Source: Eledone cirrhosa
Lineage: Eukaryota
Length of the DNA stretch: 64,000 nt
Direction: 5' to 3'
Assembly (NCBI GenBank): GCA_964016885.1
Contig: OZ024742.1
Span: 150,412,001-150,476,000 of the forward strand
The notes under the pieces are model-generated. The model saw nothing but the letters and a program-made list of their open reading frames with translations, was not told where the DNA came from and ran no database searches. The translations under genes were made by a program, and so were the position numbers. Shown in pieces: positions 17,360 through 62,105 of this stretch (its first letter is position 1; every line of letters begins with the position of its first letter).

Positions 17360-17511
17360 GGCTGAGAGGTGGCGTGACAAAGCGTACAGTGACCGGGGTG
17401 CACAATATATATATATATATATATATATATATATATATATATATATATATATATATATATATATATTGTGCACCCCGGTCACTTTACGCTTTGTCACGCC
17501 ACCTCTCAGCC
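17360..17511. repeat. Inverted repeat (46-bp arms, 1 mismatch) centred on (TA)n
   Basis: GGCTGAGAGG...GGTGCACAA-(TA)n-TTGTGCACC...CCTCTCAGCC. Confidence 0.97.
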
Positions 17512-18399
17512 TATATATATATATATATATCCTGACTCTTTTCCTATAGGTGTGGGGTGTGGTGTGTGTGCATATACGCATACACCCACTTGCTCACATA
17601 CACACACTCTGACAAAGACATTTGAAAAATAATGGGTATTTTTAAAATGCATGACCCAGAAACTAACAAAGATTACATTTATCACGAGATACGCATGACC
17701 TATGATTAGAGTGTTGGGTTCATAATCTCGTAGGTTCGACTCCTGAAAGCACGTTTTGGTCTAAAACGATTCATTTTATGTTGGTATTCATAATACCATA
17801 GACGAGAAGGGCAGCGTCTTTAAAATTAAAAGAATTGACAAACCTATGAGATGCAACCTCGTAGGAGACCAACTAAACCCCCATAGATGTGAGCTATGAA
17901 TTACATTTTTTTTTTCAAAAACTAAAAGTCTATTATAAAAATAAAATATGTGAGAATCGAGAAAGATATATAACAGAAATATCCACGAGACACGAAATAC
18001 TTACTTTCCGTTCATATAAAACAGAAGCTGTATTAGCAGACAGATATGATGAGCTTGGAGATTATATAACAAGAGAAAGTATTAAAGTGATAACTAAATA
18101 TCGACCCAAAACGTTAATCAACCCATGGTTACGGTAGAAGACGTAGAGTCAGTGCGATGCTGGTGGAATCGAATCCAGAACCACACAGCTATGCCTGTGC
18201 CAATATCGGACCAATGCCCCAACAATGCTGTACAAATGCGAAATAGGATAAGGAAGACAATGGCCAAGTAGTACAGGATTTAATGCGAAACGTGAAGCAT
18301 ATCCATTAAAAACTTATTAAAGCATATAATGAAGCAGAATATCAAAACTAACCGCCTATGTAAAATCTAAAAATTACATTGTTTCGGACAGTGTAGCCA

Positions 18400-19260
18400 C
18401 ACACACACGTTATACAGTTCTGTCCGATTACGAGTTTGAACCCGTTGAAACCTGTTTTTTGTAAAATCTATAAACATCAGTAGCTTTCACTGATGCATTA
18501 TCATTTCACAAACAATTCTCGTAGGGCAACAACTATATTTTAGTATATTAATTTTCTAAATGAAACATCATTTTCGGCAGAGCTGTTCTGCTAGAGAACG
18601 AGTCGCAGCTAGCGGATAGCGGTACGACCACCAGATATGATGGTTAGTTGCGATATAAGTGGGCACCTGCCTGACGAAAAAACAAAATTTACTGGATGAA
18701 CCTAGATCCGAATGTTTTTCCGAATTGGATGATCAAATGCAAGAGGGAACGCTTCCAAATAATCCTGTTATGAGAGAGCTTTCCAGTGAAATGTTAGTAT
18801 TATGACTATTCATAATCCTTTGAAGAAGCTAGGAAATCTTTTAAAATGGAAAAAAAAAATAGATTCTCGTGAACTTTCAGCAGCCTATCATCAACAAAGG
18901 TTTGACGGCAGTAAATTGCTCCATACACAACCTCCAAGCACTATTTTATAACCGGATCACGAGTAGAGATGTGGAAGGAAATATTCAATACGAGTATTTA
19001 GAGACGAATCAAACAATGTCTCCTGAACGTTACAGTCACTGTTTCCATCGTTTGAAGAGCGCTTTGTACAGAAAATGTTCTGCCTTATTAAACTGCATGG
19101 TTTCTCTTTCATGAATATAATGTTCAACCTCTTAGCGCACAAGTAAAAATCAGCTGGAATCGTTTCGATGGGAAAGCATGCTACACTTTCCATATTCTCC
19201 AGTTCATGCACTACCTGACTTCCACTTATTTAGATGTTTGGGAAAAATATGGCCAGCAGC
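18400..19260 (+). pseudogene. Decayed mariner (DD34D) transposase
   Basis: EGNIQYEYLETNQTMSPERYSHCFHRLKSAL and a WE..HFPYSPVHALPDFHLFR fragment (cf. YSPDLAPSDYHLFR). Confidence 0.82.
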
Positions 19261-19702
19261 GAAAACACGGATTATATATTTGTATGCTTTACCTACAAAT
19301 ATATGATGAAAAGTGATAGAACTTGAAGATCCACACACACACATGCATACTTATAATTAAATAAGTAAATAAATTATATATATATATATATATATATATA
19401 TATATATATATATATATATATATATATATATATATAGTTGGCTGCCTTGGGTCAATTTGATTTGTAAATCCAGAAATGATGAATGTGTGTGTATGTGTAT
19501 TTGTATATTATATATATAGTGTCTCTCTCTGTCTTTCTCTGTCTCTCTGTCTCTCTGTCTGTGTGTGTGTGTGTGTGTGTGTGTGTGTGTGTGTGTGTGT
19601 GTGTGTGTGTGTGTGTGTGTGTGTGTGTGTCATCTTCATGAACTTGTTCTTGTTCGCTATAAAATATCAACCCTAATTTAGGGTCCCTAATACACATTAT
19701 AT

Positions 19703-60208: not shown

Positions 60209-60644
60209 TAGAAGTCGACCCTAACTATTACTAATAGTTTTAGGAAAGCCATGAACGACACCACATCTTTTTAACTTTGATTTTGAAAGTAGGTTTATAA
60301 TGATCAATTTTCATTATATTTTTGTAGCTGTCTCGGTAGCCTAGTTGGAGGAATCATAGACGGTGGTGATCTTGGTTTGAAGCTCCATCTAGGTCGGGAG
60401 TAGAGTTCCCAGTAAACCATTTCAGTTTTTTTCTATTAGTTGTAAAATAAAAACTGACCAGGATTGAACACGACGCCAGGATCTCCACCGTCTTTAGTAT
60501 CTACCGCTAGGCCACAGAGACACCAACGAAAATCTTATGAAAATTCATACTTATAAACCTACTTCCAAAATTTTCAAAACAAAGTGTTGTGGTGTCGTTC
60601 ATGTCTTTCTTAATGTTATTGCTCCTACTTAAGGTCGACTTCTA
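60209..60644. mobile_element. MITE-like hairpin element with long imperfect TIRs, each holding a tRNA-like segment; second copy 62107-62470
   Basis: Termini TAGAAGTCGACC / GGTCGACTTCTA; mirrored CATGAACGACACCACA and AAGTAGGTTTATAA. Confidence 0.75.
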
Positions 60645-61134
60645 AATCATTTGGGTGTTCCATAAACTACATCCTCGTTTTGTTTCACATCTATCTAGAA
60701 TATATTTTAACCTGTAGTCCATGTTTCATTTCTGTTGCACCTCATTTCTCCCCCCTCTCTTTCTCTCTATGATATTTGAATGTACTATGTACTATGATTT
60801 GAGCTTGCTTTATTCATATATATATATATATATATGTTTTTGCATGTCAGATTCAAACTTACAATGATTGGCATATATATATATATATATATAATGCCAA
60901 TCATTGTAAGTTTGAATCTGACATGCAAAAACATATATATATATATATGAATAAAGTAAACCCAAATCATAGTACATAGTACATTCAAATATCACAGAGA
61001 GAAAGAGAGGGGGGAGAAATGAGGTGCAACAGAAATGAAACATGGACTACAGGTTAAAATATATTCTAGATAGATGTGAAACAAAACGAGGATGTAGTCG
61101 ACCTTAAGTAGGAGCAATAACATTAAGAAAGACA
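60602..61134. repeat. ~530-bp palindrome centred on (TA)n
   Basis: Arms 60602-60874 and 60894-61134; right arm lacks 28 bp. Confidence 0.97.
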
Positions 61135-61889
61135 CACACACACACACACACATATATATATCTTACTGCTTCCTCTTTCTCTGTATCTTTACCCTCTCTA
61201 ACAGTCACTCTCTCTGTTAGCCTCTTCCTCACCATTCACTCACTCTCTGTTACTACCTCTCCTCCTCCTCCTGCTTCCCGTTTGACATGTGCGTAATTCT
61301 TTTCTTTCGCACCCTTGGTCAGGCAGGTCGCTTTTTTTCTCTCTCTCGTCTACGATTTCACAGAACTTATGTTCACCGAATTCACAGACTAGATCCCTTC
61401 TTCCTCCCGTTAGACCTGTACGGAATTCCTTCCTTGCTCACATTCCAACCAGGTTTGATGGTCTTTATTCTCTCTCGTTCACGATTTCACCGAACTTATA
61501 TTCATGGAAATTTGGGACTTGACTCCTTCTTCCTCACTTTTCGTTGCTTCACCATCTTTGTTTGTTTACACTCTCGTGTCCCCTTTATTTACGTGTCCCA
61601 ACGACTTTTTTTAGCCGTTGCTCGCACCAACCGGAGGTATATGGTCTTTAAAGCGATGAAATATCGATGATGGTTGGAAGATCACTGATGAAGGACTAAC
61701 TTCATTCATATATATATATATATATATATATATATATATATATATATACAATGATATTATTAATATCATTGAATATTATACTCCAGAAAACTGTTGAGTG
61801 CTTCAAATCAGTTATAAACATATATATTTGTTGAATTACCAACATATAAGCAAATATATAAGCAAAAGGGATATTTAATTTGTTGGTAA

Positions 61890-62105
61890 TCAATCTTCTG
61901 GCCCTTTGGTAACAACCTTATTATTTCTATGTGTGTTTAATTGTTGAATTAATTTAATTTGATTATATTAGCAAACAAATAATATATATATATATATATA
62001 TATATATATATATTATTTGTTTGCTAATATAATCAAATTAAATTAATTCAACAGTTAAACACACATAGAAATAATAAGGTTGTTACCAAAGAGCCAGAAG
62101 ATTGA
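61890..62105. repeat. 216-bp palindrome centred on (TA)n
   Basis: ~93-bp arms, 2 mismatches. Confidence 0.97.

Follow-up and report, generated by a model that had tools for sequence, protein, structure and literature searches.

Hairpins beside (TA)n arrays in the Eledone cirrhosa genome: head-to-head insertions of a Hydra-like Penelope-like element and a minority of local fold-backs

The dominant maker of hairpins in the genome of Eledone cirrhosa is a Penelope-like element (PLE) that targets (TA)n arrays, a source absent from the first-pass annotation of the 64,000-nucleotide stretch analysed here (the window; contig OZ024742.1, positions 150,412,001 to 150,476,000). Copies of flanking DNA folded back around TA arrays form a real minority class beside it. 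The architecture of the insertions is known from other PLEs and is found here at unusual scale. In the reading that we favour (probability about 0.6), the PLEs insert head-to-head into (TA)n and the TA-centred local flank copies arise by snap-back, with the PLE endonuclease as the likelier source of the nick.

The scale is apparent from 1.55 Mb of random genome, where 168 close inverted repeats were counted (three of the 158 random stretches, L138, L153 and L169, are satellites and were omitted from the final count). The palindromes of the window had been attributed to a general process of fold-back primed by (TA)n, which these counts do not support: the TA array is mostly an outer landing site (TA at one outer end in 100 of 168) and not the axis (14 of 168). 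The PLE layout (TA)n-tail-arm-arm'-(TA)m was present at 73 of the 168 loci, all of them among the 100 with outer TA, and at least 12 families in this sample each have a tail of fixed length. Extrapolated to the whole genome, tailed hairpin insertions would number ~110,000–180,000 (about 140,000); ~3% of the genome bases lie in close inverted arms. Hydra-like coding matches occurred in 31 of the 158 random stretches. Among the tailed families only one (family B) was followed to a coding frame; for the others, as for families A and CD of the window, assignment to a PLE type would follow from layout or motif only. The window itself is atypical (TA axis in 4/7 palindromes under one set of criteria vs 14/168 in random sequence, a post hoc Fisher p = 0.002), and no regional surplus of TA-axis palindromes was found in the adjoining 100 kb (1/16).

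Family B is represented in the window by the palindrome at 45767 and the core of that at 44311, both of which are the 3' end of one Hydra-like PLE. At another locus (L076) it runs on into a reverse transcriptase (RT) frame with a C-terminal GIY-YIG domain, and the 5' end there is an inverted copy beginning at position 78 of the family (B78). An intact frame of 784 codons with YRDDG and AYIG motifs lies inside a 3531-bp tandem unit (L252), and also contains RWR, DKT, CNCPDRSIC, CNLC and CKH motifs, which we compared with those of the Hydra clade (RWK, DKT, a CxCX5C linker, CxxC and CxH; PMC8557442). The protein has 23 homologues at E<=1e-10, one of them annotated as a GIY-YIG endonuclease; pieces of it gave no Pfam match, and the sole match among the six, then two, coding pieces searched was RVT_1, from an unrelated non-LTR element in the window. 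Read by eye, 24 of 144 scored genome matches have open frames of 764–819 codons, 141 of 144 are free of stops across the query, and the close opposite-strand pairs among them are all head-to-head (9/9). Partial tandems (pseudo-LTRs, 3531 bp), inverted 5' copies (L076, L121, L253–L255) and a one-sided tail were all seen in family B, which inserts into (TA)n, the ends of the insertions lying within TA arrays. By its motifs and its (TA)n target we would class it as a Hydra-like EN+ PLE, with a unit longer than is typical of Hydra, and it is likely to be still active.

Inspection by eye of ten family B copies revealed a hammerhead-like motif with stems I–III, GAAA and a GUC site. The core is altered in five; in the other five it has what we take to be the U3-A8 variant. 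With a strict hammerhead descriptor, 13 motifs were called in the sample and none in shuffled sequence; neither the window nor family B yielded any, and a relaxed descriptor also missed family B, because stem II is bulged. An Rfam scan of window positions 12000–64000 gave no match.

The head-to-head pairs carry most of the information on how these insertions form. Exactly one tail is present in 58 of 63 pairs of family B; the arm without the tail extends beyond the other in 23 and stops short of it in 17, and in 18 they are equal. In some pairs the arms have no overlap at all, so that a single folded cDNA cannot give them. Two of the insertions (L253 and L254) are palindromes of 4.3 and 4.6 kb, 99.9% and 99.6% self-identical, whose arm ends are 6 and 8 nt apart with 3- and 7-nt microhomology. 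In 37 of 39 pairs both arms are of the same subfamily type, whereas shuffling gave a mean of 13.4 such pairs and never more than 23. The apex varies from copy to copy, and there are two fixed start sites, B1 and B78. In the raw data of three other samples, each run contains ~3000 reads in which family B starts at B78, preceded by (TA)n, and all three samples share 8 strand-switch joints; these reads come from amplified RAD libraries, and several of the joints have one start point. Read depth in these libraries drops past B ~140, to which a restriction site may contribute (many molecules end at one position), and the drop is therefore not relied on by itself. Snap-back of one cDNA was rejected as the sole mechanism, given that the tail-less arms often hold sequence without counterpart in the tailed arm, and two fully independent cDNAs were judged insufficient for 2-kb arms that end <=8 nt apart and share a subfamily type. 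Taken from the sequences, these data point to two primers on opposite strands combined with snap-back of the cDNA. Arms of equal length could also be explained by two polymerases running off one broken RNA.

All seven palindromes reported for the window were recovered as inverted repeats at the positions given for them (17360, 40716, 43334, 44311, 45767, 60602 and 61890), and their parts are listed in the table. A (TA)n axis was confirmed in five of them (17360, 40716, 43334, 60602, 61890), as was the running of the right arm into another simple repeat at 17360, 43334, 44311, 45767 and 60602; the right arms of 40716 and 61890 do not run into one. The arms match at 44/45 positions at 17360, 40/40 at 43334 (where the interruptions of the array mirror only in part) and 90/92 at 61890. 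At the remaining loci there are 22 identities, 2 mismatches and 1 gap (40716), 243 identities, 4 mismatches and 22 gap columns (44311), 54 identities, 1 mismatch and 2 gaps (45767), and 235 identities, 4 mismatches and 34 gaps (60602, with a deletion of ~31–33 bp in the right arm).

Table. Components of the palindromic loci, in window coordinates.
Feature	Position	Strand	Details
TA-centred fold-back, single-copy DNA	17360..17511	.	45-bp arms around (AT)31, then a 19-bp TA run
TA-centred fold-back, single-copy DNA	40716..40790	.	25/24-bp arms around (TA)13
TA-centred fold-back, single-copy DNA	43334..43910	.	identical 40-bp arms with a 497-bp interrupted TA array between them
Repeat family A end, left outer arm of nested palindrome	44314..44478	-	
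PLE family B insertion, non-overlapping arms	44541..44627	.	tail stub B 1-39 head-to-head with tail-less B 137-89
Fold-back	44628..44882	.	starts within the B insertion; back-copies B 1-39, TA array and family A; stops on reaching the following TA array
Miniature PLE family B insertion	45687..45878	-	(TA)n, 77-nt tail, arm, tail-less inverted arm, (CT)6(AT)7
Tandem repeat family CD, unit 1	59817..60872	+	C end forms the left arm of 60602
Derived inverted copy of C end	60894..61134	-	left arm's private variants, deletion, (CA)10 end
Region between two fold-backs	61135..61889	.	simple repeats and ends of two other TA-flanked families with PLE-type tails
Derived inverted copy of D start, left arm of 61890	61890..61981	-	
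Family CD, unit 2	62014..62693	+	D start forms the right arm of 61890

The arms had been described as mostly unrelated to one another. In fact 45767 and the inner part of 44311 have family B in common, and a single tandem repeat family supplies one of its ends to 60602 and the other to 61890; a first look at the genome gave 2120 candidates for the arms of 44311, 403 for 45767, 1979 for 60602 and 1194 for 61890. The arms of 17360, 40716 and 43334 are single-copy: the genome search, which skips very common words, matched only the window, and a 1.93-Mb local database held no copies either. The description of the arms as copies of whatever flanked the array stands for the five TA-centred loci and fails for 45767 and the core of 44311, which are the PLE 3' end. 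An adjacent inverted arm accompanies 22 of 40 scored copies of the 45767 family, i.e. the same structure recurs at many loci, which for this palindrome is one of the outcomes that the first-pass annotation had named as refuting it; the apex of the window's miniature copy is at 45822/45823. Family A is a tandem unit of ~680 bp with a hammerhead-like motif in other copies. The junction reads C-(TA)n-D in 7 of 16 copies of family CD, the first unit of which holds a SINE at 60025–60208 in the window; classification of this family was attempted and no class was assigned.

At the TA-centred loci the arms themselves tell where the second copy came from. At 60602 both carry a base and a 7-bp duplication that are absent from all 33 other copies of the family, and rare variants are common to both arms at 61890 (present in 2 and 1 of 24 copies) and at 44311 (2/23). 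The single-copy arms and these private or rare shared variants imply that the inverted copy was made from adjacent local sequence. At 60602/61890 a C-(TA)n-D junction was opened and each side of it folded back, with 1.7% and 2.2% divergence; at 44311 the fold-back leads out of the PLE insertion into flank DNA. Among TA arrays with complex flanks, 9 of 508 are flanked by inverted repeats, against 0.84 expected from random pairing of flanks; the nine include two cases of B copies in tail-to-tail arrangement and four loci with arms rich in TA. A preference for TA over other microsatellites did not reach significance (9/508 vs 1/313, p = 0.099; initial counts 8/303, 1/88 and 0/23).

For the PLE class, the scheme that we favour would begin with nicks made by the GIY-YIG domain in the two strands of (TA)n. 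Reverse transcription would then be primed from both 3' ends, starting at the end of the RNA tail (B1) from one and 77 nt inward of it (B78) from the other. Whichever cDNA extends further would snap back via 3–7 nt of microhomology and its snapped-back copy would be captured by the other end, which is why one arm would always be without a tail; a first cDNA that stops within the tail would simply be joined to the second. In the TA-centred class a similar 3' end may pair with itself before, or in place of, engaging RNA, copy 25–240 bp of flank and then reconnect to the opposite side of the break, frequently at a simple repeat, and 60602/61890 would have folded back from both ends of one TA junction. 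The break is attributed more readily to the PLE endonuclease, with host repair as the alternative. A bolder version, in which Hydra-like PLEs are both the main maker of near-perfect hairpins and the main substrate of hyper-editing, and their protein duplicates host DNA free of RNA by (TA)n snap-back, sometimes on both sides of the cut, is speculative and rather doubtful.

The most substantial competing account, possible though less probable than the one just given, leaves the PLE class as proposed and makes the TA-centred fold-backs host events, with (TA)n cruciforms cut by structure-specific nucleases and end-joined with fold-back synthesis; this is the mechanism of the first-pass annotation confined to the minority class. 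It fits the three loci with single-copy arms, where no PLE sequence was found (17360, 40716, 43334), and the 60602 fold-back, which is later than the private changes of its repeat copy. It also fits the finding that PLE insertions are not preferentially bordered by inverted flanks: these occur at none of 46 random loci that could be tested and at 2 of 23 B insertions (one of them in the window), a rate resembling that of bare TA arrays (9/508). Known activities could supply the steps: ERCC1-ERCC4 or MUS81 cut TA repeats, and Pol-theta end joining then closes the break, leaving short templated duplications (PMC13645644), and breaks in yeast yield fold-back inverted duplications (PMC11724301). 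Yet the yeast products are mostly 5–34 bp, against arms of 25–240 bp here, and the axis arrays can be short ((TA)10–16 at 40716, 60602 and 61890). Moreover, the genome holds an abundant TA-targeting nuclease-polymerase, and flank fold-backs adjoin PLE-type pieces at 44311, between 60602 and 61890, and at L056, where inverted flanks surround a B insertion. These points incline us to the PLE endonuclease as the source of the nick.

It is very improbable that the palindromes arose in sequencing or assembly as fold-back chimeras at TA runs. The arms of 43334 are identical, and the read check covered 17360 alone, with two runs of one sample that is possibly the assembled one; it is a depth argument only, 17394–17539 being masked so that there are no spanning reads. 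Even so, the arm depth there implies a second contig at single-copy depth (~11.5 vs 11.1–14.4 in the flanks), six of the seven loci have arm differences, one of them a deletion, and the PLE junctions recur in three other samples. Chimeras would also not give fixed, family-specific tail boundaries. Slimmer still is the chance that the arms are terminal inverted repeats (TIRs) of a MITE, or two independent opposite insertions of one family into the same TA array. MITEs are by definition short, numerous, near-palindromic and TA-flanked, as are the hairpins here; the arms are multi-copy at four loci, and tail-to-tail pairs of different B subfamilies do occur (L131). However, MITEs have fixed TIRs and a uniform structure, whereas these hairpins derive from the 3' end of a retroelement and have neither fixed ends nor a fixed apex, and one arm is without the tail. 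Families A, C and D are not palindromic at these ends elsewhere: 17 of 17 other family A loci inspected had no inverted arm within 1.5 kb, and among 40 scored D copies only the window's has two opposite matches. Double insertion is further contradicted by the private variants common to the 60602 arms and by a random expectation of just 0.84 in 508. For these seven loci this reading is thus already contradicted, and the earlier view that they are not one MITE family holds.

The closest described relatives are the EN+ PLEs of the Hydra clade, which insert into (TA)n (Craig et al. 2021, PMC8557442). They resemble family B in the single frame of RT and C-terminal GIY-YIG with RWR/RWK, DKT, CxCX5C, CxxC and CxH, and in having pseudo-LTRs in tandem, an inverted copy at the 5' end, a tail on one side and insertion into (TA)n, besides a putative hammerhead-like motif. 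The unit is longer here (3531 bp vs generally <3 kb), as is the tail of family B (77 nt, and ~25–110 nt in other families, vs 30–40 bp), and the relevant passages describe few families, in contrast to a layout that here extrapolates to ~140,000 loci. Penelope insertions of Adineta vaga are likewise head-to-head, with a palindrome at the inverted junction, a one-sided tail and self-priming invoked (PMC3846280); their copy numbers are tiny, and priming on an antisense template is proposed in that account, unlike the cDNA snap-back and second primer indicated here. In vitro, purified Poseidon of Anolis cleaves and extends both strands of an AT-rich target and starts reverse transcription at two sites that bound the tail (PMC11167929), whereas its later steps are stated to be unvalidated and the cited passages do not extend to inverted structures. 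In snap-back 5' junctions of R2, the 3' end of the cDNA primes synthesis on cDNA or target DNA close by, ahead of joining (PMC11331408), so that flank DNA can be copied in inverted orientation; such junctions are rare there, with one primer and an rDNA target, while head-to-head is the usual outcome here. Break fold-backs and Pol-theta repair (PMC11724301, PMC13645644) also leave an inverted copy beside the break, TA arrays providing both break sites and microhomology, but those described are somatic or experimental and mostly <35 bp, in contrast to the genome-fixed copies of 25–240 bp found here, once on both sides of a junction.

The origin of the tandem and inverted structures of PLEs is called undefined in the passages cited (PMC8557442), and a literature search outside most subscription journals returned no description of Hydra-like PLE palindromes from cephalopods. 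With many tailed hairpins, intact copies and two visible start sites, the model of two primers and snap-back is open to tests both in vitro and by counting. In a study that names Penelope as massively edited in a lizard (PMC5625713), the proportion of loci that could pair into near-perfect dsRNA is exceptionally high in octopus, which also gives the strongest signal of hyper-editing but was left out of the repeat analysis. The PLE hairpins are a candidate dsRNA source in this genome, and both hairpin classes together would be a large one. In annotation, such insertions would pass for MITEs or collapse in assembly. By its 39 molluscan haemocyanin domains and 121 protocadherin matches, the latter mostly clustered, the genome is coleoid-like.

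All seven palindromes claimed by the first-pass annotation were found in the window and are genuine features, and the (TA)n axis ascribed to five of them was likewise borne out (see table, where palindromes are named by their window start). RNA folding of six of them predicted 83–97% of bases to be paired. At 17360, where the right arm is masked, the depth of the left arm exceeded that of the flanking contig by as much as a second contig of depth about 11.5, the single-copy level, would add (two runs, one sample); the argument is indirect, and the sequenced sample may be the assembled individual. 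The window lies at G000:C3:150412001-150476000 of a 3.0-Gb genome that gave 39 molluscan haemocyanin domain matches and 121 protocadherin matches, the latter mostly in clusters, a content in keeping with a coleoid. Two further stretches, 7543–9617 and 10186–12057, scored as inverted solely because TA is self-complementary.

Inverted repeats and other features of the window
Position	Strand	Feature	Details
1–12084		Degenerate TA-rich array	12 kb
17360 (start)		Palindrome	Arm identity 44/45
19696–25977		Tandem array of five 1260-bp units	~98% identity; old internal inverted repeat in each
26168–26451		Older inverted repeat	Arms ~100 bp, 84% identity
40716 (start)		Palindrome	22 identical, 2 mismatches, 1 gap
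41896–41970	minus	Candidate first coding exon	Predicted acceptor, ATG, ~20 signal-peptide-like residues, donor
43334 (start)		Palindrome	Arm identity 40/40
43952–44000		Partial copy of the element at 45384–45490	
44311 (start)		Palindrome	243 identical, 4 mismatches, 22 gap columns
45384–45490		TA-flanked small element, true MITE-like	Short terminal inverted repeats
45767 (start)		Palindrome	54 identical, 1 mismatch, 2 gap columns
48304–51829, 54814–56412	minus	Broken non-LTR retrotransposon copies	RVT_1 match; among (GTAT)n and (TATG)n arrays; presumably resembling Dong/R4-type elements
57222–57537		Eighth young inverted repeat, absent from the first-pass annotation	Oppositely oriented pair of SINE pieces; arms 117 bp, 95.7%; spacer 82 bp, without TA axis
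60209–60644		Old inverted repeat, fixed component of every family CD unit	Arms ~170 bp, 75%
60602 (start)		Palindrome	235 identical, 4 mismatches, 34 gap columns
61890 (start)		Palindrome	Arm identity 90/92

The arms of 17360, 40716 and 43334 are single-copy (genome searches returned the window alone, and a 1.93-Mb local database contained no copies); the remaining arms are ends of repeats. The arm at 44314 is the end of family A, a tandem-unit repeat of ~680 bp (2120 genome candidates), those at 44541 and 45687 are ends of family B (403 candidates), and the 60602 and 61890 arms (1979 and 1194 candidates) are C and D, the end and start of a single tandem unit of family CD. An inverted arm within 1.5 kb was absent at all 17 other family A loci inspected. 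Elsewhere in the genome 7 of 16 C ends continue via (TA)n into D; in the window this junction is split by ~1.1 kb, with an inverted duplicate at each end (divergence 1.7% and 2.2%). Both C arms carry one base and a 7-bp duplication found in 0/33 other copies, both D arms two rare bases (2/24 and 1/24 other copies) and both family A arms one rare base (2/23); these shared private or rare variants mark the three pairs as locally made copies. A block at 44174–44905 cuts a tailed Penelope-like element (PLE) type family (44077–44173 and 44906–45068) at its tail/arm boundary, so that the 44311 palindrome is nested within an older insertion.

The genome was sampled by 158 stretches, each 10 kb long and taken at set intervals (1.55 Mb after removal of three satellites). 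A close inverted repeat was counted where the arms had 30 or more non-simple bases and an identity of 88% or higher and the spacer did not exceed 600. Among the 168 loci found, TA formed the axis in 14, lay at exactly one outer end in 100 (73 of which had a second TA array at most 120 nt past the opposite arm) and at both in 13; 41 were of other kinds. At non-axis loci TA adjoined 126 of 308 outer ends vs a 3.4% background. Over the first 1.16 Mb, arms mostly recurred within the sample (124/142), and the tailed loci, (TA)n-tail-arm-arm'-(TA)m, fall into at least 12 families, each with a fixed tail length. Extrapolation gives ~325,000 close loci in the genome, 141,000 (111,000–177,000) of them tailed and 27,000 (15,000–45,000) TA-centred, with arms covering 3.3% of bases. 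The TA-primed fold-back invoked by the first-pass annotation fits five window loci but is a minor class in the sampled genome, where palindromes are made mainly by a retrotransposon of a known kind, at unusual scale. TA arrays with complex flanks were flanked by inverted repeats in 9/508 cases vs 0.84 expected (two being tail-to-tail family B copies), other microsatellites in 1/313 vs 0.67 and mixed arrays in 0/145; the difference between TA and other microsatellites was not significant (p=0.099). By these criteria 4 of 7 window loci have a TA axis, which sets the window apart both from random sequence (post hoc p=0.002) and from neighbouring DNA (1/16).

Family B illustrates this retrotransposon. 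An adjacent inverted arm occurs in 22 of 40 scored copies, with an apex individual to each. At one locus (L076) family B forms the 3' end of an element bearing reverse transcriptase, a CxCX5C linker and, C-terminally, GIY-YIG, whose 5' end is an inverted copy starting at B78, where short arms also stop. Its protein has homologues of ~700 residues, one named GIY-YIG endonuclease; Pfam did not recognize the coding pieces. Another stretch, L252, holds an unbroken 784-codon frame (motifs RWR, DKT, CxCX5C, CxxC, CxH) within a 3531-bp tandem; four or more such PLE units in tandem, with the 784-codon frame in every one, lie at L252 and G000:C1:437201779-437213166. Family B is a PLE, and its motifs agree with the Hydra clade, for which section 11 of PMC8557442 describes such motifs and (TA)n targets, a match by motif. 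Hydra-like coding matches occurred in 31 of the 158 stretches and were not found in the window. From 77,352 first-look candidates, 144 PLE coding matches were scored: 141 were stop-free, 24 had frames of 764–819 codons, and close opposite-strand pairs were head-to-head in 9/9 cases (read by eye). One randomly chosen stretch (L156:2072-6998) contains a 4.9-kb palindrome, 99.4% identical, with PLE coding matches on both arms.

How such pairs form can be examined in 156 B-end matches, drawn from every locus retrieved and therefore biased by how the searches were made. The 63 head-to-head pairs have one tail (B1–77) in 58 cases, none in 3 and two in 2, the longer reach falling to the tail-less arm in 23, to the tailed arm in 17 and to neither in 18. 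Several paired arms share no overlap (e.g. 44541, B1–39 joined to B137–89) and so require two separately primed cDNAs, in agreement with the Poseidon PLE, for which PMC11167929 reports in vitro cutting and extension of both strands from two start sites bounding the tail. Yet at L253 and L254, palindromes of 4.3 and 4.6 kb, the arms terminate within 6 and 8 nt, at microhomologies of 3 and 7 nt, and among the 39 pairs offering four or more comparable sites, window pair excluded, the arms agree in subfamily type in 37 (shuffles: mean 13.4, maximum 23). This suggests that the longer cDNA snaps back and that the other end takes up its copy. Equal ends would also arise if a pair of polymerases ran off a single broken RNA, and the two discordant pairs, L174 and L063, hint at an occasional second template. 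Head-to-head PLE palindromes, attributed to self-priming (PMC3846280), and R2 snap-back junctions (PMC11331408) have been reported before. RAD reads from three other samples, mapped to a non-palindromic B copy, began at B78 behind (TA)n 3415, 2904 and 2938 times; 13 of the 15 joints listed (13 further ones exist) switch strand, 8 of these being present in all three runs, some joints resting on a single start point.

For the TA-centred class, the geometry suggests that a broken TA end primes on itself and copies its flank. The PLE protein, which targets TA arrays and is abundant, may be the breaker: the 44311 fold-back begins inside a B insertion, then crosses (TA)n and a 165-bp piece of family A, PLE-type pieces sit between the 60602 and 61890 fold-backs, and a B insertion elsewhere (L056) is bordered by inverted flanks. 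Against this, PLE sequence is absent at three TA-centred loci, and inverted flanks surround 0/46 PLE insertions at random loci and 2/23 B insertions, one being the window's own. Host cleavage of TA repeats with Pol-theta repair (reported in PMC13645644) and fold-back duplication (reported for yeast in PMC11724301) are a sufficient alternative.

Coleoids are described as rich in Penelope elements, in part recent ones (PMC8967140, PMC13282606), in accounts whose Penelope passages make no mention of palindromes, and PMC5625713 reports exceptional dsRNA potential and hyper-editing in octopus. The window palindromes and the sample make the PLE inversion mechanism testable, and PLE hairpins a testable candidate source of coleoid dsRNA. 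Some palindrome loci may be intronic, since a candidate signal-peptide exon is predicted at ~41896–41970. The B pseudo-LTR shows, by eye, a putative hammerhead-like fold with a variant or altered core; cephalopods do not appear among the retrozymes in the part of preprint 10.64898/2026.07.22.740005 that treats them. Family B copies mostly stop at B ~130–145 (L077:695-725; 94/162 match ends), where read depth drops ~30-fold, on the loop side of the predicted hammerhead stem II.
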